64,000 bases of DNA from Patescibacteria group bacterium (GTDB taxonomy: Bacteria; Patescibacteriota; Minisyncoccia; Phycocordibacterales; UBA12079): assembly GCA_043800905.1 (NCBI GenBank), contig JAZDMO010000007.1, forward strand, positions 1,627-65,626. Reading direction: 5' to 3'. Under the pieces are notes generated by a model. That model had not been told where the DNA came from and did no database searches. It worked only from the letters and a program-made list of their open reading frames with translations. Of this stretch, positions 4,882-63,965 are shown in pieces (positions within the stretch are counted from its first letter, which is position 1; the number at the start of each line of letters is the position of its first letter). The position numbers were made by a program, and so were the translations under genes.

Positions 4882-6456
4882 ATGCAAAAGGTTATAGATT
4901 TTATTCAAAAACATACTAACTTAAGTTTTTTTATTTTAGCGCTAGTTTTGGTTTTGGTGATGTATGGTAGTAGTCTAGCCGGCTCTTTTGTTTTTGATGA
5001 TAGGTCTATTATTAGTTATCAAAGTTTTTTTCAAAATCCCGCAAATTGGTGGGAAGTTTTAAAGATGCCCTATTGGGGTTATGAAGCGGGGCTTTATCGT
5101 CCGGTGACAATTTTTTCCTATGGGCTAAATTTTGCTATTTTTGGTTCTGGAGCTTGGAGTTTTCATCTTATCAATATTCTTTTGTATGTTTTTTCGGGTT
5201 ATCTTTTATTTTTGTTTCTCAAAAAAGTTTTATGGGGAAAATATCGCAGGCAGATTGCTTGGGTGAGTGCACTTTTATTTTTGATTTTACCGATTCATAC
5301 CGAAGTGGTGGCAAATATTGTAGGGCGAGCGGAAATTTTTGCCTTAATGTTTTCTTTATTAGGTCTTCTTGAGCTGATTAAAAAAAATCCAAACAAATGG
5401 ATAACCGCTTTATGGTTTTTCTTAGCTATGGGTAGTAAGGAAACGGCTATCGCGGTTTTGCCTATTGCGTTTTTAGTGTGGTTTTCTCGATCTAAGTTTT
5501 TAGAAAAAAAGAAAATTACTCTTCGAGATTTAGAGTTTTATTTTTTCCCAGCTTTTTTGTCGGCTTTTGTTTATTTAAGTTTCCGTTTTCTGATTTTAGG
5601 TTTTTATTTTTTTTCCAATAACGCGAGTCTCGTAGAAAATCCTTTAAAATTTGTTTCTGTTTCAGAAAGAATTTTTACAGCTTTGAAAATTTTATCTATG
5701 TATGTTTATAAAAGTTTAGTGCCCTTCAATCTTTGTTCTGATTATTCTTATAATCAGATTGTAGTTAGTTCTAGTTTTTGGGAAAGCGGAGTAATCGTCG
5801 GTTTTCTGATTTTAGTTTTTTCTTTTGTGGGAATTTTCTATTTTTTTAAAAAGAATTTTAATTTTACTTTGGCGTTGATATTCTTCTTCTTTCCTTTTTT
5901 TATAGTTTCTAATTTATGGAATGCTATCGGGACAATTGCAGGGGAGAGGCTTTTCTTTTATCCTTCAGTGGGTTTATGTATTTTCTTAGGAATATTTTTT
6001 GTTTGGTTGTGGAACTTAGCTAAAAGCGAAAATATCAAAAAAATTTTAATCACTCTATTTGTGTTATTGAGTTTTTTTTATACAATCCGCAGTTTTGACC
6101 GAGCCTTAGATTGGATGAGCGAAGAAAAACTTTTTATTTCTGCAAGTCAGTGTGCACCTCAAAGTGTATTATCTCTTTCTAATTTAGCCACGGTTTATTA
6201 TTTTAAAGGAGATTATGAACAAGCAGAAAAGATTATTTTAGATTCTTATGAAATTTATGATGGTTATACAAAAGCTAATAATAATCTTGGTTTAATTTAT
6301 TGGAGAGGGGGAGAAATAGAAAAAGCTAAAGAGCAATTTTTTAAAACTTTTGAGCACTTTCCGCCCTATGAAGGGGTTTATGAAAATTTAGTTTTATTTT
6401 ATTTATCTCAAAATAATGAAAAAGAAGCTATGAAGTGGTATAAAATAGGTTATTAG
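4882..6456 (+). CDS. polytopic membrane protein with N-terminal GT-C-like (PMT/ArnT-type) glycosyltransferase region and C-terminal TPR repeats
   Basis: About 11 predicted TM helices. The early FVFDD loop motif is typical of GT-C aspartate-rich loops. The C-terminal approx. 120 aa has TPR-like repeats (ATVYYFKGDYEQAEKI, NNLGLIYWRGGEIEKAKEQF). Confidence 0.5.
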   Translation: MQKVIDFIQKHTNLSFFILALVLVLVMYGSSLAGSFVFDDRSIISYQSFFQNPANWWEVLKMPYWGYEAGLYRPVTIFSYGLNFAIFGSGAWSFHLINILLYVFSGYLLFLFLKKVLWGKYRRQIAWVSALLFLILPIHTEVVANIVGRAEIFALMFSLLGLLELIKKNPNKWITALWFFLAMGSKETAIAVLPIAFLVWFSRSKFLEKKKITLRDLEFYFFPAFLSAFVYLSFRFLILGFYFFSNNASLVENPLKFVSVSERIFTALKILSMYVYKSLVPFNLCSDYSYNQIVVSSSFWESGVIVGFLILVFSFVGIFYFFKKNFNFTLALIFFFFPFFIVSNLWNAIGTIAGERLFFYPSVGLCIFLGIFFVWLWNLAKSENIKKILITLFVLLSFFYTIRSFDRALDWMSEEKLFISASQCAPQSVLSLSNLATVYYFKGDYEQAEKIILDSYEIYDGYTKANNNLGLIYWRGGEIEKAKEQFFKTFEHFPPYEGVYENLVLFYLSQNNEKEAMKWYKIGY

Positions 6457-6496
6457 TTATCTAGTTGTTTAGGAAAAATTTACAAAGCAAATTTTT

Positions 6497-7057
6497 ATGT
6501 TTAAAAAAATTATTTATTTGTTGTTAATAATTGTAGGAATAGGTTTTTTAATATTGCTTTGGCAGTATTTTGATTTTTACAATTTCAAACCAGAACAAGA
6601 AATTCTTCTTTCAGAACAAAATGAAAAAAATAATTTAAATCCACAATTGAAAAAAACAATTGAAGATTATTTAGTGACTTTAGATGATTTAGCTTGGCAA
6701 ACAGAGGATGAAACTTCAAATATTTGTGTCTTCGAAAATTTAGATTCAGATAATGAATTATTCCCTTTATCTTTGTGGGTTTATTGTGTTGAATATCGGA
6801 TAGACGAAAGTGGAGAGATAGAAAAATTTAGTGGAGTTTCTTTACCTTTGTTACTGGATTATCCCAATGAACTTTCTTTTTATGATCTAGAAAAATTTAC
6901 TTTTAAGATTCCTCGTGATGGTGCTTTTTACGGCGCTGATATAAGGGAAATTTTTTCAGAAAATATTCAAGAAAAAATTCTTTCGCATAATTCGGTAGAA
7001 ATTTTGGAAACCAAATTGGATGAAAAGATAAAAGCGAAGAATATTTCTGAGGAGTAA
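6497..7057 (+). CDS. hypothetical membrane-anchored/secreted protein
   Basis: 186-aa ORF with a single N-terminal TM/signal-anchor (IIYLLLIIVGIGFLILLW). No recognisable domain. Confidence 0.3.
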   Translation: MFKKIIYLLLIIVGIGFLILLWQYFDFYNFKPEQEILLSEQNEKNNLNPQLKKTIEDYLVTLDDLAWQTEDETSNICVFENLDSDNELFPLSLWVYCVEYRIDESGEIEKFSGVSLPLLLDYPNELSFYDLEKFTFKIPRDGAFYGADIREIFSENIQEKILSHNSVEILETKLDEKIKAKNISEE

Positions 7058-7140
7058 TCGACTTGTATTTTCTTTTAATTAAAGCTAATATTTTAATTCG
7101 GATAGTAATTTAAACTAACACTTTTTAGGGGGGTTCTACA

Positions 7141-7401
7141 ATGAATGGAACAACTTCTTTGGGGGTGGCAGAATTAAACAAAACAAGCTTTTCTGAAACC
7201 TTGTCGGTGGATCTTGGCGACAAGGTTCAGCTAATGGGATTAAAACAGGCGGTTCTTTTCCTCGTGGATGTTTTACGTCGAGAAGAACCTGTTTTAAAGA
7301 AAATGCCGAGCGATTGGCCGGTCCAAGAATTAGAAAGACTATGTTTATCTATATGTAAAAAAATAGACGGGACAAAGGTTCCTCCTGTCGTTAGAAGATA
7401 G
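7141..7401 (+). CDS. hypothetical small protein (86 aa) in a GC-rich islet; a structured ncRNA is an alternative
   Basis: ATG is preceded by the SD-like aggggggttctaca. The segment is clearly more GC-rich than its flanks and contains several stable hairpins (accttgtcg..cgacaaggt; gttcttttcctcg..cgagaagaac). It ends in the intrinsic terminator ggggtggtctacggatcaccctttt at 7418-7444. Confidence 0.25.
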   Translation: MNGTTSLGVAELNKTSFSETLSVDLGDKVQLMGLKQAVLFLVDVLRREEPVLKKMPSDWPVQELERLCLSICKKIDGTKVPPVVRR

Positions 7402-7449
7402 TGTTTTGTTTTTAAGGGGTGGTCTACGGATCACCCTTTTGTTTTATTT

Positions 7450-8118
7450 TTAGTGAGCTACGGTGACACAAATAATTTGTTTTGGTTTATATTTTTTCAG
7501 TGTTCGCATAGCTTCTTTGAGAGTGGCTCCTGTGGTAATAACATCGTCTAATAAAATAATATTTTTATCTTTAATTAATTTAGGCATAATTACTTTAAAA
7601 CAATTTTTTAAATTAATTTCTCTTTCTTCTTTGGAATGAGTTCGAGATTGTGGGGTAGTGTGTTTGATTTTTTTTAAAATATTTTTTCTATATTCAAAAG
7701 ATAAACGCTTATCTAAATTGTTTAATTCTTGAGCAATTAATTCTGTTTGGTTATAGCCCCTTTCTTGAAGTTTTTTGTGAGAGATTGGAATTGGAATTAA
7801 AAGAGGATTATCAAAATTATGTGTTAATTTTAAATCGGCTAATTCTTCAATTAAATTATCATAAATTATTTTCGCAAAAATTTTTGCTATTTTCCGATTA
7901 TTTTTGAATTTTAAAGACCAAATACTTTGTCGTACTAATTCATTTTGATAACTCAAAAATGAAAAGGTATTTTTGAGTGGTGGTGGAGAATTTTTAATCG
8001 GTAAAGATAGTAGTGTTTCCGCAGTCATTTTTTCTATTTTTTTCTGGGTAGGGTTTAAGGGAAGTATGGCATTCAGGATAATTCCACAGATTTCTTTAAG
8101 AGACTTGTCAGTTTGCAT
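7450..8118 (-). CDS. comFC: ComF-family phosphoribosyltransferase-domain protein (competence protein ComFC)
   Basis: PRTase-type motif IILLDDVITTGATLKEA plus upstream LIPIPISHKKLQERGYNQTELIA, typical of ComFC/ComF. Confidence 0.7.
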   Translation of the reverse strand: MQTDKSLKEICGIILNAILPLNPTQKKIEKMTAETLLSLPIKNSPPPLKNTFSFLSYQNELVRQSIWSLKFKNNRKIAKIFAKIIYDNLIEELADLKLTHNFDNPLLIPIPISHKKLQERGYNQTELIAQELNNLDKRLSFEYRKNILKKIKHTTPQSRTHSKEEREINLKNCFKVIMPKLIKDKNIILLDDVITTGATLKEAMRTLKKYKPKQIICVTVAH

Positions 8119-8144
8119 ATATTATATGATATAATAATTGAATA

Positions 8145-9320
8145 ATGTTGGAAAATTTTTTAAGTAAAATTACGTTGCCGTCTTTTTTGCAAAAGAAAAA
8201 TAAAAGTTTTCTGGGTATTGATATTGGAAGCTCGGCGATTAAAATTGTGCAATTAAAGAAAGAAAAGGGTACGGCTGTTTTAGAAACTTATGGTGAACTA
8301 GCTTTGGGACCCAAAGCTGGTTTAGAAGTGGGGAGAGCTACTAATCTATCAGATAAGGAAATCAGTGTCGCTTTGATGGATTTAATTCAAGAATCAAGAG
8401 TGAGTGTAACTGAAAGTGGGGCTTCTATTCCGGTGCGTTCTAGTTTAGTTTTTGATATGGAAATTCCTGATATGCCTTTTGAACAATTAAAAAAAATTGT
8501 TCCCATTGAAGCTCGTCGTTATATTCCAGTTCCTATTTCAGAAGTAATGTTGGATTGGAGAATTGTTCCTAAGGAAATAAAAGAAGAGGATGAAGAAGAT
8601 CCTGAAGACAAGAGATTGGCCGCTCAAAGACCTGCTGATAATTTTGTTGATACTGACCAACAAAAGATAATTGGAAAAACAAAAGTTTTTGTGGTGGCTA
8701 TTCATAAAAATGCTCTGGAAAAGTGTCAGGGAATTATAAAAAACGCTCAATTAAATTTAAATTTTTTAGAAATAGAAATTTTCAGTACCATTCGTTCTGC
8801 AGTAAACCATAATATTGGAACGGTGGCACTTTTAGATATAGGGGCGGGGGTAAGTAAAATGTATATTGTAGAATATGGGGTGATTAAAGATTCTCATATT
8901 ATTAATCGTGGCTCACAAGATATTTCTTTGGCGATTTCTCATGCTATTGGTGTGTCTGTAGATGAGGCTGAAGAAAAAAAGAGAAGTATTGGGCTTACAG
9001 GGCAAGACGGAGTGCAGAAGGAGGTTTCTGATATTATCTCGGCTAATCTTAAATACATTTTAACGGAAGCCAATAACGCCATTAAGCATTATCAAACAAT
9101 CAATAATAAGAATATTAGTGAATTGATTTTTACTGGGGGAGGTTCTGTTATAAAAGGTTTACCAGCTTTTGCTTCTTCTGTTTTAGAAATTAATTCTGAA
9201 ATCGCCAATCCTTTTAGTAAGGTTAAAACACCAGCTTTTTTGGATGACGTGCTAAAAGAAATTGGTCCGGAGTTTGCTGTGGCAGTAGGTTTGGCTTTAA
9301 GAGGTTTAGAAGATAATTAA
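8145..9320 (+). CDS. pilM: type IV pilus assembly protein PilM (actin-like ATPase fold)
   Basis: LGIDIGSSAIKIVQL start, ALLDIGAGVSKMYIV, and a C-terminal FAVAVGLALRG, typical of PilM. First gene of a pilM-N-O arrangement. Confidence 0.8.
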   Translation: MLENFLSKITLPSFLQKKNKSFLGIDIGSSAIKIVQLKKEKGTAVLETYGELALGPKAGLEVGRATNLSDKEISVALMDLIQESRVSVTESGASIPVRSSLVFDMEIPDMPFEQLKKIVPIEARRYIPVPISEVMLDWRIVPKEIKEEDEEDPEDKRLAAQRPADNFVDTDQQKIIGKTKVFVVAIHKNALEKCQGIIKNAQLNLNFLEIEIFSTIRSAVNHNIGTVALLDIGAGVSKMYIVEYGVIKDSHIINRGSQDISLAISHAIGVSVDEAEEKKRSIGLTGQDGVQKEVSDIISANLKYILTEANNAIKHYQTINNKNISELIFTGGGSVIKGLPAFASSVLEINSEIANPFSKVKTPAFLDDVLKEIGPEFAVAVGLALRGLEDN

Positions 9321-12754: not shown

Positions 12755-12843
12755 CGTCTGTCTGTTCGTCATTACGAGGAAAAAATTAAGGTTCAAAAGT
12801 TTTAAAACTTTTGAACCTTAATTTTTGACGTGGTAATCCAGAA
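12755..12843. repeat. copy of an approx. 90-bp hairpin repeat (cgtcattacgagg..aaggttcaaaagttttaaaacttttgaacctt..gacgtggtaatccag)
   Basis: Near-identical to 19029-19132. The internal hairpin differs from that copy by compensatory changes (ggttc/gaacc here, gcctc/gaggc there). Confidence 0.6.
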
Positions 12844-12859
12844 TTATATATTAAGACTT

Positions 12860-13340
12860 AATGAAAAATTAATCAGGCTGTTTTATAAAATTCTTTCTGG
12901 ATTGCTTCGTCACTCCACTGCGTTCCGTTCCTCGCAATGACGGACGACGAAAAGCAAAACGTCTCTGCGAGATCAGATTTTTTAATAAAAATCTGATCGT
13001 GGCAGTCCAGACTTGTGAAATCACGAAGTGATTTAATTAAAAAACTAAAACCTCACTCGCAAAGACGAAAAACAAAGTTTTTCGTTACGTTTTGCGTTAA
13101 GCAAAACGTCTCTGCGAGGCACGAAGCAGTCCAGTAATAAAGTGTTTTTAGGAGGAGTGAAATAATATGATACTTGTCCGCCTTGCCTGCCCCTGCACGC
13201 CGGCAGGCGGGGGTAGACAGGTTGCTTCGTAAACTCGCAATGATGAATGACGAGATGCTGGGTTGATTTATAGACTTGTAATGATAAGTGAATGGATTTT
13301 TTAAAGTAAGATCCCCCTTCCTAAATTTATTCGCCGTGGC
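12860..13340. mobile_element. composite cluster of nested GC-rich MITE-like modules filling the pilB-pilT intergenic region
   Basis: No ORF. Contains atcaggctg..ctggattgcttcg (an inverted copy of the terminus seen at 16090-16129), cctcgcaatgacg, gtctctgcgag twice, cagtccag, and ccttgcctgcccctgcacgccggcaggcggg (an inverted copy of the 58556/63797 module). Modules recur at 15894, 19029, 25482, 31203, 58337 and 63775. Confidence 0.55.
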
Positions 13341-18984: not shown

Positions 18985-19022
18985 TTATAAAGTAAAACCC
19001 GTCTTTAGGCGGGTTTTTATTA
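18985..19022 (+). terminator. intrinsic terminator after pilin paralog B
   Basis: gtaaaacccgtctttaggcgggtttttatt. Confidence 0.55.
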
Positions 19023-19028
19023 TCCTTT

Positions 19029-19132
19029 CTCGCAATGACGGTCCGCTTAGGGCGGACCGTCATTGCGAGGAAAAAATTAAGCCTCAAAAGTTTTAAAACT
19101 TTTGAGGCTTAATTTTTGACGTGGCAATCCAG
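19029..19132. repeat. palindromic repeat element (ctcgcaatgacggtccgc..gcggaccgtcattgcgagg + aagcctcaaaagttttaaaacttttgaggctt + gacgtggcaatccag)
   Basis: Two perfect hairpins in series. Same family as 12755-12843 and 31203-31302. Confidence 0.6.
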
Positions 19133-19225: not shown

Positions 19226-20050
19226 ATGGAAAAATACCTACTTTATTTTTTTGTTTTTGTTTTGGGAACTATTATTGGTTCTTTTTTGAATGTAGTGATT
19301 TTACGTTTTAAAAAAAATTCTTTAAATGGAAGTTCTTCTTGTCCCCGATGTAAAAAAAATTTAAGATGGTTTGAATTGATTCCAGTTTTAAGCTTCCTTT
19401 TTTTGAAGGGCAGATGTCGCTATTGTCAAAAGAAAATTTCTTGGCAGTATCCTTTAGTAGAAATAGCAACAGGATTATTATTTTTATTTTCTTTTATTTT
19501 TTCCGCCCAAGGCGGATCCGCCTTGGGCGGACAATTTTTCATTAACCTTATTATTTTATGGGTTGTTTTTAGTTTATTGGTAGTAATTTTTGTTTATGAT
19601 TTATACCATAAAATTATTCCTAATATTTTTGTATATCTTTTTATATTATTTTCTTTTTTAAAAGTCATCATAACTTTTCAAAATTTTTCTTTCGGGGCTG
19701 ATATTTGGGCGGGGTTTTTAGTCTCTTTTCCTTTTGCTTTTTTATGGTTTGTTTCAGGAGGAAGGTGGCTTGGTTTTGGAGATGTAAAATTAGCCTTAGG
19801 TATTGGTTGGTTTTTAGGTTTAGTTCAGGGTTCTACTGCAGTTATTTTAGCTGTTTGGATGGGAGCCTTGGTTGGTTTGATTTTGGTTGGTTTAACAAAG
19901 TTATCCGAAAAACATAGATTGTTTTTTAGGCTTAATAATTTTACAATTAAAAGTGAATTACCTTTTGCCCCCTTTTTAATATTAGGTATTGTGATCACTT
20001 TTTTCTTTGACTTAGATGTTTGGGGCTTGGGAGCTTTGCTTCATGGTTAA
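19226..20050 (+). CDS. pilD: prepilin peptidase PilD (A24 family) carrying an in-frame palindromic insertion
   Basis: N-terminal zinc-ribbon CPRC...CRYC, a polytopic membrane domain, and the C-terminal GFGDVKL catalytic Asp region. 19503-19530 is the perfect palindrome ccgcccaaggcggatccgccttgggcgg, which encodes SAQGGSALGGQ in frame. Confidence 0.8.
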   Translation: MEKYLLYFFVFVLGTIIGSFLNVVILRFKKNSLNGSSSCPRCKKNLRWFELIPVLSFLFLKGRCRYCQKKISWQYPLVEIATGLLFLFSFIFSAQGGSALGGQFFINLIILWVVFSLLVVIFVYDLYHKIIPNIFVYLFILFSFLKVIITFQNFSFGADIWAGFLVSFPFAFLWFVSGGRWLGFGDVKLALGIGWFLGLVQGSTAVILAVWMGALVGLILVGLTKLSEKHRLFFRLNNFTIKSELPFAPFLILGIVITFFFDLDVWGLGALLHG

Positions 20051-20651: not shown

Positions 20652-21371
20652 ATGAAAATATTAAAACAAAAATTAAAAAGAATTAATTCTCTAGAATATC
20701 AGATGGGGTTTATCCTGTCAGTAATTTTTAAAAATATGATTAATTTTTTAAAAAACAAAACGACTAAAATATTCAAAGATAAAAAAGAGGGTTCTTTGAA
20801 ATTTCAAACAGGGTTTACATTGGTGGAAATGATTACAGCTGTAGCAATTTTTGCTTTGGTGATGGTTGTGGCTATGGGTTCTTTATTGAATGTCCTATCT
20901 GCTAATAGACAAAGCCAAGCAATTCAAACCGCAGTGAATAACCTTAATCTTGCAATGGAAACCATGTCTCGTGAGATTAGAACAGGTTACAATTATCATT
21001 GTGGTTCCTGTTTTGGGTCAGATTGTACTACTGATAATGACTGCCCCGCAGGTGATTCTTCTATTGCCTTTGAACCTTATAATGGGAATCCCTCTTCTTA
21101 TAGTGATCAAGTAATTTTTATGTTTGATCAGGATAATCAACAGATTCTAAAATCGACTAACAACGGAGATGATTATTTAGGATTAACTTCTCCTGAATTA
21201 CATGTGGAAGATTTGACTTTTATTGTAGTCGGTTCGGATCCTAGTGATACTAGACATCCTAAGGTCTTAATTACCGCTAGCGGTTATGTTCAAAGCGATT
21301 CTAATACTCAAACTTCTTTTAACTTACAAACAACAGTTTCTCAAAGGTTAATTGATTTTGATTTATGGTAA
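20652..21371 (+). CDS. pseudopilin with one upstream degenerate leader cassette; probable true start at the ATG at 20736
   Basis: Upstream cassette NSLEYQMGFILSVIF, then MINFLKNKTTKIFKDKKEGSLKFQTG|FTLVEMITAVAIFALVMVV. Confidence 0.55.
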   Translation: MKILKQKLKRINSLEYQMGFILSVIFKNMINFLKNKTTKIFKDKKEGSLKFQTGFTLVEMITAVAIFALVMVVAMGSLLNVLSANRQSQAIQTAVNNLNLAMETMSREIRTGYNYHCGSCFGSDCTTDNDCPAGDSSIAFEPYNGNPSSYSDQVIFMFDQDNQQILKSTNNGDDYLGLTSPELHVEDLTFIVVGSDPSDTRHPKVLITASGYVQSDSNTQTSFNLQTTVSQRLIDFDLW

Positions 21372-22219
21372 AAATAATGAATTTAAAAAATAAAAAACAA
21401 GATTCTTTGAAATTCCAATCGGGGTTTACCCCGTCAGAAATTTTTAGTAGTTTGCTATCTATAATAAGAAACAAAATGAAAAAAAATCTTTTTAATAAAA
21501 AACAAGATTCTTTGAAATATCAGACGGGGTTTACCCCATCAGAAATTTTTATAAAGATATTTGGTAATATAAAGAAAAAAATAAGCAGGTTTTTAAAAAA
21601 TGAAAAGCAAGGTTTTGTAGAATATCAGACGGGGTTTACCCTGTCAGTAATTTTTAAAAATATGATTAATTTTTTAAAAAACAAAACGACTAAAATATTC
21701 AAAGATAAAAAAGTGGGTTCTTTGAAATTTCAAACAGGGTTTACCCTGATAGAAACTTTTGTGGCTGTTACGGTTTTGTTGATTGCCATCACCGGTCCTT
21801 TGTATTTAGTAGCAAAAGGTTTGTCAGTTTCTAAATCTGCTAAAAATCAGGTGACAGCTATGTATTTGGCTCAAGAAGCTGTTGAATATATTCGAAATAT
21901 TCGAGATGAAAATATTTTAAAAGGTCAGGATTGGCTGACTGGTTTAGATTATTGTTTAAATGGTAGTAAGTGTGCTATTGATTCGCCTCAAGAAGAAATC
22001 CTCTTGTGTTCGGGAGTTTGTAATTTTTTGAAATATGATGAAGATAAATATCTTTATACCTATTCCAGCGGGACAGCTAGTCCTTTTCGTCGAGAAATTA
22101 GTCTTTTACCTATTGGCAACACTGGGACAGAGGTAGAAATTTTAGTTGATATGTATTGGAATGATGGACCAAATCAAAAAGATTTTGAGGTTAGAGAACA
22201 TTTGTTGAATTGGCAATAA
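21365..22219 (+). CDS. pseudopilin whose 5' region is a mosaic of four prepilin-leader cassettes
   Basis: Encoded cassettes: KKQDSLKFQSGFTPSEIF, KKQDSLKYQTGFTPSEIF, KQGFVEYQTGFTLSVIF, and finally VGSLKFQTG|FTLIETFVAVTVLLIAITG. DNA blocks are near-identical to 17583-17680, 17700-17760 and 20736-20820. Confidence 0.55.
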   Translation: MVKIMNLKNKKQDSLKFQSGFTPSEIFSSLLSIIRNKMKKNLFNKKQDSLKYQTGFTPSEIFIKIFGNIKKKISRFLKNEKQGFVEYQTGFTLSVIFKNMINFLKNKTTKIFKDKKVGSLKFQTGFTLIETFVAVTVLLIAITGPLYLVAKGLSVSKSAKNQVTAMYLAQEAVEYIRNIRDENILKGQDWLTGLDYCLNGSKCAIDSPQEEILLCSGVCNFLKYDEDKYLYTYSSGTASPFRREISLLPIGNTGTEVEILVDMYWNDGPNQKDFEVREHLLNWQ

Positions 22220-28094: not shown

Positions 28095-28165
28095 CGCGGG
28101 ATGGTGTAGTGGTCGCACGGGAGGCTCATAACCTCCAGGGGTTTGTTCGATTCAAACTTCCGCAA
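28095..28165 (+). tRNA. tRNA-Met (anticodon CAU), initiator-like with a C1·A72 mismatch
   Basis: Manual fold: acceptor cgcggga/ttccgca with 1-72 C·A; D-stem gtgt/gcac; anticodon stem ggagg/cctcc with loop ctCATaa; 4-nt variable loop; T-arm gtttg-ttcgatt-caaac. CCA is not encoded. Followed by terminator aaaaccaccttaattaaggtggtttt (28170-28205). Confidence 0.6.
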
Positions 28166-28261
28166 CAAGTAAACAAAACCACCTTAATTAAGGTGGTTTT
28201 GTTTTGGGAAGTATTTAAAATTTTTTGTAAATATGTTATATTGTTTTTCGTATTAATAAAT

Positions 28262-28335
28262 GTCGGCGTAGCTCAGTTGGTTAGAGCGCAGCACTCATAA
28301 AGCTGAGGTCGAAGGTTCAACTCCTTCCGTCGACA
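28262..28335 (+). tRNA. tRNA with CAU anticodon: elongator Met or Ile2 (lysidine)
   Basis: Acceptor gtcggcg/cgtcgac; D-arm gctc-agttggtta-gagc; anticodon loop ctCATaa; T-arm gaagg-ttcaact-ccttc. Confidence 0.65.
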
Positions 28336-28387
28336 CACAGATTGTTGAGAAAATTAAGGATATCTGTTAAAGTATGTGTGCACTTTG

Positions 28388-28460
28388 CGGGTGTAGCTCA
28401 GCTGGTTAGAGCGTCCGCCTGTCACGCGGAAGGTCGAGGGTTCAAGTCCCTTCACTCGCG
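28388..28460 (+). tRNA. tRNA-Asp (GUC)
   Basis: Acceptor gcgggtg/cactcgc; anticodon stem tccgc/gcgga with loop ctGTCac; T-arm gaggg-ttcaagt-ccctt. A terminator hairpin follows at 28470-28500. Confidence 0.75.
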
Positions 28461-28551
28461 CAAAATTAAAAAACTGAAACTTTTTGTTTCGGTTTTTTAA
28501 TTTATATTGAAAATATATAGTTTTTCATATATTATTTAAATTGGTTTAAAA

Positions 28552-28627
28552 GCCAATGTAGCTCAGTTGGTAGAGCACCCCCATGGTCAGGGGGAGGTCT
28601 GCGGTTCAATCCCGCACATTGGCTCCA
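28552..28627 (+). tRNA. tRNA-Thr (GGU), CCA encoded
   Basis: Acceptor gccaatg/cattggc; anticodon stem ccccc/ggggg with loop atGGTca; T-arm tgcgg-ttcaatc-ccgca; 3' tcca. Confidence 0.75.
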
Positions 28628-28648
28628 ATTATAGAGGAGATGAGTTTC

Positions 28649-28721
28649 GCCCTCTTAGCTCATCTGGTAGAGCAACGGTATCGTAAATCGTAGGTGGTCG
28701 GTTCAAGTCCGACAGAGGGCT
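28649..28721 (+). tRNA. tRNA-Thr (CGU)
   Basis: Acceptor gccctct/agagggc; D-arm gctc-atctggta-gagc; anticodon stem acggt/atcgt with loop atCGTaa; T-arm gtcgg-ttcaagt-ccgac. Confidence 0.65.
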
Positions 28722-29957: not shown

Positions 29958-31116
29958 GAAAAAAACTTTTGGTTTTATTGGCATTGGTGCTCTTTTTATG
30001 GGAGTGCTTTTATTGTTTTTCTTAACAGATTTATTTGATTTAACTATTAATTTTAAAAATTCTCGAATTATTGTTGAAAGTAAAACTGAAGAGGTAAAAG
30101 AAGCTTCTCATGTTGAATTACCAAATTCAGTTAGGGGTTTATATATGACTAGTTGGGTAGCTGGAACTAAAAGTATTCGAACTCCTTTGGTGCAATTAAT
30201 TGAAGACACAGAAATTAACGCTATTGTAATTGATATTAAAGACTATACAGGTAAGATCGCTTTTGAGGTGGAAGATGAATATTTGAAAAAATTTGATGCG
30301 GTGGAAAATCGTATTCCTGATATTAAAGAATTTTTGGAATATTTGCATAGCAAAGGTATTTATGTGATTGGGAGAATTTCTGTTTTTCAAGACCCCAACC
30401 TTGTAGCCTTAAGACCAGATTTAGCTGTTAAACAGTCAAAAAATGGACCGGTATGGAAAGATCGAAAAGGGATTTCTTGGCTAGATGCTGGTTCTCAGGA
30501 TGTTTGGGATTATGTAATTGCCATAGCGCATGAATCCTATAAGTTTGGTTTTGATGAATTAAATTTTGATTATATTCGTTTTCCTTCAGATGGCGATATG
30601 AATAATATTTATTATCCTATCAGTGAAGAACGGGTAGAGGCTGATCCTGAAAAAGGAAAAGCTAAAGTAATGCAAGAGTTCTTTGTTTATTTAGATAATA
30701 AAATGAGTGACATTGATGCAGTAATTTCAGCAGATTTATTTGGAATGGTAACAACCAATTCAGATGATTTAAATATCGGTCAGGTTTTGGAATATGCTTT
30801 GCCATTTTTTGATTTCATTTGTCCCATGGTTTACCCTTCACATTATCCAACTGGTTTTATTGGTTTGAAGAATCCAGCTGAACATCCCTATGAAGTAGTT
30901 AAATATTCTATGGAGAGAGCAGTGGGGAAAGCTTTGAATGCTAGTTCAACTCCAAGTAAATTAAGACCATGGTTACAAGATTTTGATTTAGGCGCCGATT
31001 ATACAGCCTCTATGGTACGAGCCCAAATTCAAGCGACTTATGATGTTGGATTAAATTCTTGGTTATTGTGGTCGGCGTCGAACAAATATACTAAAGAAGC
31101 TCTCTACGATAAATAA
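29911..31116 (+). CDS. putative glycoside-hydrolase-like TIM-barrel protein (DUF4015/GHL-type), membrane anchored
   Basis: N-terminal TM helix. NAIVIDIKDYTGKIAFE...GIYVIGRISVFQD...ISWLDAGSQDVWDYVIAIAHESYKFGFDELNFDYIRFP is characteristic of the DUF4015 putative glycosyl hydrolase family. Confidence 0.45.
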   Translation: MFMLKMIVLQKLKQNKKKTFGFIGIGALFMGVLLLFFLTDLFDLTINFKNSRIIVESKTEEVKEASHVELPNSVRGLYMTSWVAGTKSIRTPLVQLIEDTEINAIVIDIKDYTGKIAFEVEDEYLKKFDAVENRIPDIKEFLEYLHSKGIYVIGRISVFQDPNLVALRPDLAVKQSKNGPVWKDRKGISWLDAGSQDVWDYVIAIAHESYKFGFDELNFDYIRFPSDGDMNNIYYPISEERVEADPEKGKAKVMQEFFVYLDNKMSDIDAVISADLFGMVTTNSDDLNIGQVLEYALPFFDFICPMVYPSHYPTGFIGLKNPAEHPYEVVKYSMERAVGKALNASSTPSKLRPWLQDFDLGADYTASMVRAQIQATYDVGLNSWLLWSASNKYTKEALYDK

Positions 31117-31123
31117 AAATTAA

Positions 31124-31162
31124 AATAAAAGGCTCGGCGCTAAAGCGCTGAGCCTTTTATTT
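31124..31162 (+). terminator. intrinsic terminator
   Basis: aaaataaaaggctcggcgctaaagcgctgagccttttatttt. Confidence 0.6.
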
Positions 31163-31202
31163 TAGTATATAGTATTCGGTATTTTGTATTTTGTATAAAT
31201 AA

Positions 31203-31302
31203 GTGACGGTCGCCGAAGGCGACCGTCATTGCGAAATATTTTTAGAGAATTTTTTTGAAAAAATTTTTCAAAAAAATTCTCTAAAAATATTGTGGCAATC
31301 CA
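31203..31302. repeat. palindromic repeat element (gtgacggtcgccgaaggcgaccgtcattgcg + long AT palindrome + gtggcaatccag)
   Basis: gacggtcgccgaaggcgaccgtc hairpin; tagagaatttttttgaaaaaatttttcaaaaaaattctcta palindrome; family terminus gcaatccag. Confidence 0.55.
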
Positions 31303-31404
31303 GAAAAAACTCTTAAATTTTAAACGGCTCAACCTGTTGAGCCGTTTAACAAGGCTATATTGCTTGTTATTTTATGAAAGAAAGTTATTTTTAAAAATTC
31401 ACAC

Positions 31405-50450: not shown

Positions 50451-51752
50451 ATGAGGAAAAGAATATTACTTATAGATCCGCCCTTTCAAAGATTTATGGG
50501 ATTTTCCAAAACAGGAATTCCTCTCGGGCTGTTGTCTTTGGCAGGAGTTTTGAAAAAAAGAGGTCATTGGGTTGAAGTTCTGGATTCGGATTATAATCCA
50601 AATGGAACCCCTTACCCTTTTATGGATAAAATAGGCCACTATGATGAATACCTTGATAATTTAAATAATGGAAACCATTTAATTTGGGAGGACATTTCTT
50701 CCCAGATTGAGAAATCAAAACCAGATGTGGTTGGTATTTCTTTTATTTCTACCAAATTAAGGAGCGGATTAAGGGTCGCGCAAATTGCAAAAAAGATGGG
50801 TGTAAAAAGAATTGTGGGAGGGGGTCCTCATGTAATAATTCGTCCAGATGATGTTGCTGGCAAAGGTAGTGCTGTTGATTATTTAATTATTGGAGAGGCT
50901 GAAGAACAATTGGATGTTTTTGAAGGAAGCCCTTCTAATAGCGTTATAAAAGCAAGCAGAATAAAAAATTTAGATTCATTGCCTTGGATGGCCAGGGAAA
51001 GTCTTGTGGGGATTCACCATTATCGACCTTCTGATCTTGGTTTTATGATAACCTCAAGAGGGTGTTCTGGGTCTTGCAATTTTTGCTGTTCTGAGAAATT
51101 GTGGGGCAAAAAAGTCAGATTCAGGAGTATTCAAGATGTCATTGCAGAAATGGTTTATGTTAACAAAAAATATGGTACCAAAAAGTTTTATATGACAGAT
51201 GATACTTTTACAATGAATAGAAAAAGAGTTTTTGAATTTACTGACGGGCTTCTTGGAAAAAAATATGAATGGGGTTGTTTGACTCGAGTAGATAGAATAA
51301 ATAGTAAAATGCTTGAACAAATGGTTTTGTCTGGTTGTAATATGATTAAAGTCGGTGTTGAGAGTGGAAGTCAGAGGGTATTAAATTTAATGAACAAGGG
51401 AACAACCCTCAGTCAGGCAAGAGCTGTTGCAAAGTTGCTTAATGATTTTTCTGTAACTTGGCTAGCTTATATAATGGTTGGAGTTCCTGGGGAAACCTCT
51501 GAAGATGTTGATGCCACTATGAAGTTTGTCGATGAAATCAAACCCACTTATGTTAGTGCTTCAATTTATACTCCGTATGTTGGAACTGGTTTTTACAAAA
51601 ACGGTTACGACCATTTATTAAAAGGGAAAATTATGGGCGATTATGCTATCGAAGAAGCAAATCACCACAGTTTAAAAGTTATAGCGGGAGATGTTCCTCG
51701 TGAAAAGATTGTTGAATTCATGAGATTTGCGGATAGTTATAATTCACCCTAG
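50451..51752 (+). CDS. B12-binding-domain radical SAM enzyme (class B radical SAM methylase-like)
   Basis: The N-terminal RILLIDPP...GIPLGLLSLAGVLKKRGHWVEVLD is a B12-binding Rossmann. It is followed by a CSGSCNFCC (Cx3Cx2C) radical SAM cluster motif. The start is placed at the ATG after the aggagg SD (frame of the tracked ORF). Confidence 0.7.
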   Translation: MRKRILLIDPPFQRFMGFSKTGIPLGLLSLAGVLKKRGHWVEVLDSDYNPNGTPYPFMDKIGHYDEYLDNLNNGNHLIWEDISSQIEKSKPDVVGISFISTKLRSGLRVAQIAKKMGVKRIVGGGPHVIIRPDDVAGKGSAVDYLIIGEAEEQLDVFEGSPSNSVIKASRIKNLDSLPWMARESLVGIHHYRPSDLGFMITSRGCSGSCNFCCSEKLWGKKVRFRSIQDVIAEMVYVNKKYGTKKFYMTDDTFTMNRKRVFEFTDGLLGKKYEWGCLTRVDRINSKMLEQMVLSGCNMIKVGVESGSQRVLNLMNKGTTLSQARAVAKLLNDFSVTWLAYIMVGVPGETSEDVDATMKFVDEIKPTYVSASIYTPYVGTGFYKNGYDHLLKGKIMGDYAIEEANHHSLKVIAGDVPREKIVEFMRFADSYNSP

Positions 51753-58306: not shown

Positions 58307-58336
58307 TATTTTTTAAATTAAAAAATTAAAACTTTA

Positions 58337-58641
58337 TTCGCAATGATATTTATTTACTGGATTGCCACACCGAGCGCCAAAAACTTTAATTAAAGTTTTT
58401 GGTGCTCGGCTCGCAATGACGAACGAACGGATGTTGGACCTGCCTGCCGGCAGGCAGGTTGCCATGATATCGCTCGCAATGACGAGATGCTGGGTTGCTT
58501 CGTAAACTCGCAATGACGAACTGACGAATAAACACTGGATTCCTCCCAAGCCTACCTGCCCCCGCCTGCCGGCGTGCAAGGGCAGGCAGGGCGGACAAAT
58601 GCCACAGAATTTTTTAAAACAAAAAATTCTTCGCAATGACG
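58337..58641. mobile_element. approx. 300-bp cluster of nested GC-rich repeat modules
   Basis: Contains ctggattgcc, ctcgcaatgacg three times, the 20-bp palindrome 58439-58458, gacgagatgctgggttgcttcgtaaactcgcaatgacg (inverted at 13215-13260), and tggattcctcccaagcctacctgcccccgcctgccggcgtgcaagggcaggcagggcgg (copy at 63775-63835). The ORFs tracked here on the minus strand are translations of the repeats. Confidence 0.6.
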
Positions 58642-58838
58642 ATAATTTTTTGGGATGTTTTTTCTTTGTTTTTTATGTTGTTTTTTGGTATAATTTTTCG
58701 GTTATACTTAACAGAGTTGCAAGTTTTTAAAGTTTATAAAATTCGTAAAGTTTATCTGTAGGTAGATAGAAAATTACTTTGTAATTTTTTCGAAATATTT
58801 TTTGACTTTAAATCTGTATTAGAAATTAAAATACTTTT

Positions 58839-63500: not shown

Positions 63501-63651
63501 GACCTTAACTACTGTGATTGGTATGGTACCTTTGATTTTTGCTTCTAGTATGTGGGCTCCTTTGTCATTTTCAATTATCTTTGGACTTTCTTTTGCAACT
63601 GTGATTACTTTAATTTTGGTACCAGTTTTGTATGTGAGATATACGAAATAA
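60559..63651 (+). CDS. RND superfamily efflux permease (AcrB/HAE-type, 12 TM, 1030 aa)
   Basis: Two large periplasmic loops and the duplicated 6-TM architecture. Conserved TM4-like GLAIPFSFLIAFIGLY and TM10-like segments. Confidence 0.85.
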   Translation: MKDFWTFFIRKRAFTSLLVISLTIAGIFSLVKITKESSPEIQIPLAIVSTFLPGSSAYDTERLITDKIEDQLINNLDTVSKVSSTSGEGISSITVEFNADADIPSSIQKVKDEVDKVKGELPTEAEDPIISDINFADQPILMFSISSDLPTTEFIKLADNVEAKLKTVSGVSKLGISGIQKREVQVIVDKAALSKFNLGISDLVSAISRANSSIPVGNIEISGIKYPLKFKGDITDTAVIKDIPVLNLGGEVIYVRDLAFVSDGVSQQNSYSRISLDGEPSQQAVSFSVYKKRGGDITSIVNGVKKSIEEMQNGGILEGSEVLYSVDMAEYLKDDLNNLSGSGLVTVFLVVMILYLSIGWREALIAGLAIPFSFLIAFIGLYSSGNTINFISLFALILAVGILVDSAIVVTEAMHTKIKDGMGGKESAIATIKEFYMSLTSGTMTTVAAFFPLFFLSGIMGKFVSGIPYTLIFVLFASLFVALGIVPLIAMLVLKKNGNSNGKLFKFQTKYNNLLKDWYEVRLKNIILNRKFQNKFLWAMGIALVLSFILPLSGLLKTTLFPDEDQKFIYVDVEMPQGTVLAETDMAVRAVEEILYNQPFIESFETSVGATNSFSNSGSSSGEKFGNMTVILRKDRSKTSYEIVEVLRKELAPIKIAKVIVAQPGSGPPSGAPITIKFFGDDLDNLEKVVFQAGEVLKEISGTVDVTNSMENNVIEFVLSIDRAKLAENNLSPVSLAQVLRTSIYGVDATTIKTAGEDIDVLVKLNLNSENIDPSLTSQTTVDAIRQMEISTPQGKVLLGSLLDISLSKNNSSIIHEDGDRVATVSSQLAKGANAVEINKEFQKKIDDGTLSIPEGIRLKTGGENEDIMKTFTEMLMALVAGLLLVIVVLILQFDSFKQTFFIVVGVMMSLIGVLVGLTITGNAFSFPSFIGVIALAGIVVNNAIILIDTMNSMRMEKPDLELVEVVIQSSITRLRPILLTTLTTVIGMVPLIFASSMWAPLSFSIIFGLSFATVITLILVPVLYVRYTK

Positions 63652-63677
63652 ATATATAAAAGCTTGATAAAAAATAA

Positions 63678-63712
63678 AAAAGCGATAATTTTAAATTATC
63701 GCTTTTTTATTA
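63678..63712 (+). terminator. intrinsic terminator after the RND gene
   Basis: aaaaagcgataattttaaattatcgcttttttatt. Confidence 0.6.
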
Positions 63713-63774
63713 TTCCATTTTTAGAAGTAAAACCTTCGCCTTTAGGTGATTATTCAAACATTTTTTTAAAATCT

Positions 63775-63965
63775 GGATTCCACCCAAGCCTACCTGCCCC
63801 CGCCTGCCGGCGTGCAGGGGCAGGCAAGGCGGACAGGTGCCACACAAGGTTTTTTGATTTTTCTTCAAAAATCAAAAAACTGTATAATTATGACGACCGT
63901 CATAATTATACAGTTTGTTTTTTTTGCTAGACCTGTCTACTGGCAGGCAGGCTTGGGTGGAATTC
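63775..63965. mobile_element. approx. 190-bp MITE-like element with approx. 25-bp terminal inverted repeats and nested internal palindromes; further family modules run to the window end
   Basis: Left end ggattccacccaagcctacctgcc, right end ggcaggcaggcttgggtggaattcc. Internal cctgccggcgtgcaggggcaggc, the hairpin ttgatttttcttcaaaaatcaa, and the perfect 16-bp-arm palindrome ctgtataattatgacg-a-ccgtcataattatacag (63880-63913). Confidence 0.6.

Follow-up and report, generated by a model that had tools for sequence, protein, structure and literature searches.

ComFB is a small protein of the Bacillus comF operon and is represented by Pfam PF10719. The gene described here likewise encodes a small protein beside comFC in a competence and type IV pilus neighbourhood, but it is convergent with comFC instead of co-oriented and the predicted fold of its product is a two-helix hairpin. 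Identity with ComFB was rejected, as the small protein gave no Pfam family at E ≤ 0.1. Among bacterial RNAs, the G+C-rich islet in which the gene lies resembles tmRNA, RNase P RNA, SRP RNA and 6S RNA in its above-average G+C, its local hairpins and its 3′ terminator, and differs from them in that it has neither a covariance-model match nor a conserved structure. The first-pass annotation of this DNA had offered two readings of the islet, a small protein or an unrecognised ncRNA. The former was borne out by the reading frame, the amino acid conservation, the Shine-Dalgarno (SD) sequence and the synteny, whereas the latter found no Rfam match and no conserved hairpins on its side. Comparison of the sequences supports the islet as a real small-protein gene that is conserved as a protein.

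According to the public record the source is a Patescibacteria MAG, in which the 86-codon ORF is already annotated as the hypothetical protein V1851_01155. In the window, that is the whole stretch of 64,000 nucleotides that was analysed, the ORF occupies a 392-bp spacer (7058-7449) between the stop codons of a 186-aa ORF on the plus strand, here called p186, and of a convergent comF-family gene on the minus strand (Table 1). Homologues of p186 numbered 43, in Patescibacteria, and p186 adjoins comFC in the loci L002 and L030-L037. The surroundings constitute a competence and type IV pilus cluster, and the ORFs beyond pilM resemble pilus ATPases, pilins and a prepilin peptidase, as judged by eye only from their translations. 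The comFC-pilM pair was found to be kept across Patescibacteria relatives (loci L001-L007, L024-L029 and L032-L039). The gene converging on comFC varies by lineage and may be TMTC-like, p186, Nudix-like or other, and an overlap of 17-26 nt between the p186 homologue and the end of comFC occurs in several genomes.

Table 1. Coordinates of the small gene, its expression signals, its internal hairpins and the neighbouring genes in the window.
Feature	Position	Strand	Remarks
TMTC-like TPR membrane protein gene	4882-6456		upstream of p186
p186 (NCBI V1851_01150)	6497-7057	+	186 aa, apparent N-terminal membrane anchor; synteny anchor
Promoter-like pair TTGTAT (7063-7068), 17-nt spacer, TAATAT (7086-7091)	7063-7091	+	putative function
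Shine-Dalgarno-like G-run AGGGGGG	7127-7133	+	7 nt before ATG 7141
Protein-coding gene V1851_01155	7141-7401	+	86 codons; conserved core residues about 22-86
Hairpin 1, perfect 10-bp inverted repeat, 11-nt loop GTGGATCTTGG	7197-7227	+	-17.7 kcal/mol, z -3.5
Hairpin 2, long imperfect inverted repeat within coding sequence	7240-7297	+	-23.5 kcal/mol, z -3.9
Intrinsic terminator, 11-bp stem (7414-7439) then T-rich tail TGTTTTATTT	7414-7449	+	
ComF-family phosphoribosyltransferase gene (comFC-like)	7450-8118	-	convergent; Pfam Pribosyltran, TIGR00201 comF
pilM	8145-9320		after comFC

An exhaustive HMMER search of 1.84 billion representative proteins returned one credible homologue of the small protein, P0003 (87 aa, E 3.7e-11), which in a pairwise blastp comparison displayed 46% identity to the window protein over 67 residues (E 6e-20). 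P0003 is encoded on the 3.4-kb Logan contig L030, where the gene order is that of the window: a TMTC-like C-terminus, the p186 homologue, the small ORF, comFC on the minus strand and pilM. A third member of 67 aa was reached via the contigs of p186 homologues; on contig L031 it is flanked by the p186 homologue and comFC. A match to L031 at E 1e-32 was obtained with a profile of all three members, a value to be read with L031 itself among the source sequences of the profile. The family accordingly counts three, two of them found among approximately 15 billion predicted proteins searched and the third on contig L031. No further member was detected by the three-member profile HMM among 39 loci, a two-sequence profile search gave nothing beyond the two known members, and a word-indexed search of 5.8 billion proteins retrieved only the protein itself. 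The small ORF was unmatched in viral contigs, JGI metagenome contigs, phage DNA and plasmids, metagenome contigs searched with the p186 neighbour gave nothing, and Pfam, PHROGs, NCBIfam and PDB sequence searches of the small protein gave no credible match. Two giant repeat proteins reported by HMMER, P0002 and P0004, were discarded as repeat artefacts; their matches, 9 and 5 weak stretches with identities of 28-34%, all fell within Ig-like or HYR-like tandem repeats.

The two genomes carrying an orthologue are close to that of the window, with a pilM identity of 82% for L030 and an identity of 80% for L031 over the available comFC fragment. The gene is absent from relatives at 63-73% pilM identity, and in 29 representative genomes fetched via pilM the comFC-pilM pair was kept and the islet was not traced by tblastn, blastn or nhmmer. 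In the non-carriers p186 either overlaps comFC or is separated from it by 118-162 non-coding bases, as in L002, where 118 bp lie between the p186 homologue and comFC. Among the sampled genomes, the gene was found only in that of the window and in the two closest to it, in each case between p186 and comFC-pilM.

All three members have an open frame at the same syntenic position, of 86, 87 and 67 codons. The core of 65 codons aligned without gaps in all three, and the indels in the N-terminal part comprised whole codons; the first approximately 20 residues are variable and are missing altogether in L031. Invariant residues were G26-D27-K28-V29, L31, L34, L41, P56, W59, C68, I75-D76 and V80. Between the window and L030, nucleotide identity at the three codon positions was 0.52, 0.74 and 0.49, and position 2 was the best conserved in all three pairs. 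The same pair displayed pN of 0.34 and pS of 0.71, and the residues shared between them were encoded by an identical codon in 18 cases and by a synonymous codon in 17. With three members only and saturation at synonymous sites (dS 1.0-2.2), the dN/dS estimates of about 0.2-0.8 are rough. The small gene evolves faster than its neighbours, as seen from the 46% amino acid identity compared to 66-84% for the neighbouring proteins. The first-pass annotation had named the pattern of substitution among orthologues as the test between protein and RNA. Applied to L030 and L031, this test favours a protein, because codons were replaced synonymously, position 2 was conserved and the internal hairpins were not.

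Codon usage singles out the reading frame of the ORF. With a codon model trained on the 43 long ORFs of the window, the frame scored a log-likelihood of +0.07 bits per codon, within the range of host genes in frame (0.29 +/- 0.15, 5th percentile 0.04). The other five frames scored from -0.20 to -1.45, compared to a 99th percentile of -0.38 for host genes out of frame; four of them were in the out-of-frame range and the fifth (-0.20) was located between the out-of-frame and in-frame ranges. An equally long stop-free run occurred in 234 of 5000 shuffles of the spacer (4.7%).

The signals for expression are shared by the orthologues. At the place equivalent to the promoter-like pair, L030 has TTGTTT-17-TAGTAT and L031 has TTGAAT-17-TAGTAT, giving a common upstream architecture of TTGnnT-17-TA(A/G)TAT in all three. 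An SD-like run precedes the ATG by exactly 7 nt in each of the three, with AGGGGG in L030 and AGGAGG in L031 in the place of the AGGGGGG of the window. Such a site is uncommon here, being present in only about 1 of the 43 long genes of the window, which makes the SD of the small gene noteworthy. The terminator (-17 kcal/mol, z -5.1) was the sole terminator-like site found in 6400-8300 and is flanked on either side by a 13-nt direct repeat. L030 (-19.9 kcal/mol, z -5.5) and L031 have terminator hairpins at the equivalent place, with different stem sequences. The G-run with a good SD, the 86-codon ORF and the clean intrinsic terminator at the end, all reported by the first-pass annotation, were thereby recovered. 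Based on these signals, a sigma-70-like promoter TTGTAT-17-TAATAT would, if it fires as its sequence suggests, start a transcript of approximately 350 nt, the G-rich SD would recruit the ribosome for translation of the 86 codons, and the intrinsic terminator would end the transcript just ahead of the convergent comFC. It is very likely that 7063-7449 forms a self-contained single-gene unit for the small protein.

The scarcity of SD sequences in this genome was evident throughout the window, where the 43 long ORFs almost all are without one and the ORF at 50451 (AGAGGAGG) is the clear exception. In several of the ORFs a TATAAT-like box stands no more than about 15 nt from the ATG (for example 8145, 8118 on the minus strand, 19226, and 48249 on the minus strand), which suggests that their mRNAs may be leaderless or have very short leaders.

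The G+C content of the islet (7125-7445) was 0.411 and that of the ORF 0.410, compared to 0.3125 for the whole window and 0.275-0.277 for the two flanking genes, in agreement with the original description of a segment of approximately 380 bp that is much richer in G+C. In 300-bp windows the 95th and 99th percentiles of G+C were 0.383 and 0.423; the islet falls between them and is therefore real but moderate. Several other spots in the window exceed it. By codon position the G+C of the ORF was 0.51/0.36/0.36, which in order is like that of real genes and in level is shifted up. Its GC3 of 0.36 exceeded that of every long host gene (0.16-0.28), and its GC3s was 0.33, with 86-codon chunks of host genes reaching 0.32 at the 99th percentile. 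The orthologous genes had a G+C of 0.33 and 0.35 versus the 0.41 of the window copy, in genomes of near-equal composition (0.31 vs 0.30). The G+C-rich, structured look is peculiar to the copy in the window genome.

Among the G+C-richer spots are intergenic islets of up to 0.49 G+C at 12869-13300 and 58334-58650, and also at 19029-19069 and 31204-31228. These consist of repeated TCGCAATGA(C) units, of which there are eight forward and two reverse copies in the window, accompanied by G+C palindromes such as CCTGCCGGCAGGCAGG; their ORFs are short and overlapping, none longer than 100 aa, and no Rfam gathering match was obtained. They resemble a family of dispersed repeats without relation to the islet studied here. 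A link between the latter and the G+C-rich TCGCAATGAC-type repeat islets (12.9-13.3 kb and 58.3-58.65 kb) was rejected, as no similarity was seen by eye and the hairpins of the small gene are unique in the window.

The strong local hairpins noticed in the first reading of the islet were confirmed, as the two internal hairpins fold 3.5-3.9 standard deviations better than shuffled sequences. The motif GTGGAT, said to lie in the loops of two hairpins, is in the loop of hairpin 1, whereas in hairpin 2 it belongs to a small apical stem. Compared to shuffles, the equivalent segments of L030 gave z -0.74 for hairpin 1 and z -0.04 for hairpin 2. The 351-nt segment 7100-7450 folded with z -4.9 on the plus strand and z -3.7 on the minus strand, and the ORF alone with z -2.5 and -2.75, respectively. 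The value of -2.5 for the ORF is unremarkable because it lies within the background of the window itself (260-nt windows, mean z -0.73, sd 1.95, 5th percentile -4.4). Folding that is as strong on both strands points to Watson-Crick inverted repeats at the level of DNA and not to a strand-specific RNA structure. A three-way consensus by RNAalifold was weak, with -21 kcal/mol over 333 columns, and the two internal hairpins of the window were not recovered in it. The terminator was the only structure conserved across the orthologues, which is equally expected for an mRNA.

Shuffling of synonymous codons, with the protein and the codon set kept, gave z -2.35 for the gene, and 4 of 400 shuffles folded as well as the real sequence. 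In the segment 7192-7301, which spans both hairpins, the value was z -5.0 and none of 1000 shuffles reached it, a comparison that favours the hairpins since the offset of the segment was chosen after the hairpins had been seen. Among 489 coding segments of equal length from the 43 host genes, one was more extreme (z -5.2) and the next was at -4.3. On the fixed grid that was used for the host genes, the segments of the small gene gave z -0.7, -2.5 and +1.0, and the orthologues shuffled in the same manner gave z -1.0 and -0.4. In the window copy the mRNA contains structure beyond the need of the protein, and the account of a plain gene has no explanation for it.

One explanation would be a transcript of dual function that encodes the protein and in addition carries two selected hairpins, acting in cis on stability or translation or as a binding site. 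The synonymous shuffles of the gene and of 7192-7301 speak in its favour, as do the rank of the latter among the host segments and the rarity of a perfect 10-bp inverted repeat with a stem of 50% G+C inside genes of the window. The excess of structure is, however, missing in both orthologues, it is lower on the fixed grid, where the offset is not picked to span the hairpins, and it is subject to ascertainment bias, as the region was flagged for its hairpins in the first place. Moreover, the structure is symmetric between the strands, and each hairpin is present as a single copy in the window. We regard dual function as unlikely. A still bolder version, in which the mRNA of a young, fast-evolving gene has been reshaped in one lineage, through two hairpins that rely on the choice among synonymous codons, into a structured element that is both message and regulatory or protein-binding RNA, is less probable again. 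Alternatively, the locus could record how a coding sequence gains new structure through template-switch mutations. In hairpin 1 the conserved GDKV motif is partly encoded by the 3′ arm. The codons in question are matched by an exact reverse complement in the 5′ arm, which belongs to the N-terminal part that is not conserved. A constrained 3′ arm and an unconstrained 5′ arm fit, as we infer, a template-switch (quasi-palindrome) origin, and mutation of this kind is possibly the source of the inverted repeats. For a conserved protein-coding gene, the hairpins and the extra G+C are most simply explained by lineage-specific drift of the sequence and not by a conserved functional RNA.

Perfect palindromes and strong folds occur also elsewhere in the window. 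Two 46-nt perfect palindromes with a 21-bp stem and a 4-nt loop (12781-12826 and 19072-19117) are identical apart from paired changes in the two arms, GGTTC/GAACC versus GCCTC/GAGGC, from which it follows that the hairpin has been kept by compensatory change. The G+C-rich palindrome TCCGCCCAAGGCGGATCCGCCTTGGGCGGA (19502-19531, 13-bp stem) is in frame within a prepilin-peptidase-like ORF (19226-20050), where it encodes SAQGGSALGGQ. No other coding segment was as extreme in the scan by synonymous shuffling (z -5.2), and the palindrome may have been inserted in frame. Dense clusters of long perfect hairpins with stems of 11-27 bp were found at 31121-31349 and 63673-63916, outside the long (at least 200 aa) ORFs. 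The folding of 260-nt windows gave z -7.6 at 31001, z -6.9 at 63501, and, at 19001, z -12.5 on the minus and -10.9 on the plus strand. An identical 30-nt A+T palindrome, TTTTTAAAAATATGATTAATTTTTTAAAAA, is present at 20725-20754 and 21651-21680, inside the adjacent ORFs 20652-21371 and 21365-22219, which may be tandem paralogues.

Recent horizontal acquisition from a G+C-richer donor, for instance as a phage or plasmid moron, would explain the composition differently. The G+C of 0.41 in a background of 0.31, with a GC3 above that of every long host gene, agrees with such an origin, as does the presence of an SD in a genome where these are rare; furthermore, the junction downstream of comFC varies among the relatives and the gene is absent from those with a pilM identity of 73% or less. 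Against it, the two closest relatives carry the orthologue at exactly this position, the flanking promoter, SD and terminator align, and the G+C of the orthologues (0.33 and 0.35) is near the 0.30 of the host. Nothing similar was found in phage DNA, plasmids, viral contigs or PHROGs, and there were no flanking repeats or target-site duplications save the 13-nt direct repeat around the terminator. The shared position, the near-host G+C and the aligned signals in the relatives imply that the gene predates the split of these genomes and that the excess of G+C arose in place, and recent acquisition is in our judgement quite improbable. A MITE or other palindromic mobile element was rejected because neither hairpin has a second copy in the window and no inserted length interrupts the alignment of the coding core with its orthologues.

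A search of the whole window by Rfam cmscan at gathering thresholds (4227 families) detected nothing except five tRNAs at 28.1-28.7 kb, which form a plus-strand cluster at 28095-28721, and the ncRNA option of the first-pass annotation, for which cmscan had been suggested as a check, was not sustained by any such match at the islet. At E ≤ 10 the best hit at the locus was SQ2397, with 31.1 bits versus a threshold of 100, and it rested on the terminator. The orthologous segments displayed no match above threshold, and the families below threshold differed between the orthologues and likewise owed their scores to the terminator. In keeping with the statement that no signature of tmRNA, RNase P RNA or SRP RNA could be made out, their covariance models were unmatched and aragorn-type tRNA-like ends are absent from the islet. 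That the segment encodes a housekeeping or regulatory ncRNA, with an accidental ORF, is hardly credible: raised G+C, the strong plus-strand fold, the clean terminator, a second promoter-like site (CTAACA-16-TACAAT, 7115-7142) that would start transcription past the ATG, and the lack of an SD in most host genes, by which the G-run need not be one, can be cited for it, but the empty Rfam result near the islet, the comparable minus-strand fold, the failure of hairpins 1 and 2 to be conserved in L030 or to appear in the three-way consensus, and the conservation of the amino acid sequence, with codons exchanged for synonymous ones and the frame open in three of three, stand against it.

The possible ncRNA thus turns out to be an ordinary small-protein gene and should no longer be treated as a candidate RNA. 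As a caution, raised G+C and hairpins in an AT-rich genome are insufficient for calling an RNA gene. Beyond good annotation the finding has little weight. What it adds is a three-member orphan family confined to a narrow subclade of Patescibacteria, always beside comFC and pilM. The SD kept in a mostly SD-less genome and the position at comFC and pilM are small leads regarding competence and pilus loci or translation initiation in these reduced bacteria.

The predicted 86-aa product includes the peptides VQLMGLK and MPSDWPVQELER. AlphaFold2 gave a mean pLDDT of 62 for the single sequence and 76.5 with the two-sequence alignment, and in the latter the means of 10-residue blocks over residues 21-80 were 74-96, with five of the six blocks at 90 or above. 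The model has a disordered N-terminus, antiparallel helices at 25-47 and 61-76, and a short contact between residues ~22 and ~79 that closes the hairpin. The product would be a soluble protein with a core of approximately 65 residues folded as an antiparallel two-helix hairpin behind a disordered stretch of the first ~20 residues, with G-D-K-V at 26-29, P56, W59, C68 and I-D at 75-76 as its conserved signature. Helical hairpins usually pair with themselves or with a partner, and by analogy the hairpin of this family may do the same. We infer that the protein is small and soluble and acts as an adaptor or oligomerises. Its gene keeps the same position, which suggests a link to p186, comFC and the pilus genes, and any partner would probably belong to the neighbouring competence and type IV pilus genes.

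A Foldseek search with the predicted model gave no match at E < 1. Rop, the phytoplasma proteins PHYL1/SAP54 and the designed 2L4HC2 hairpins, all of which form four-helix bundles, are alike to it in predicted shape only, with 5-8% sequence identity and scores typical of any helical hairpin. In comparison with the usual annotated small proteins, the family differs in being without a Pfam, NCBIfam or PHROG model. With the generic bacterial small-protein gene it has in common the same canonical parts, a promoter-like site, an SD, a short ORF and a terminator, all of which are kept in the orthologues.
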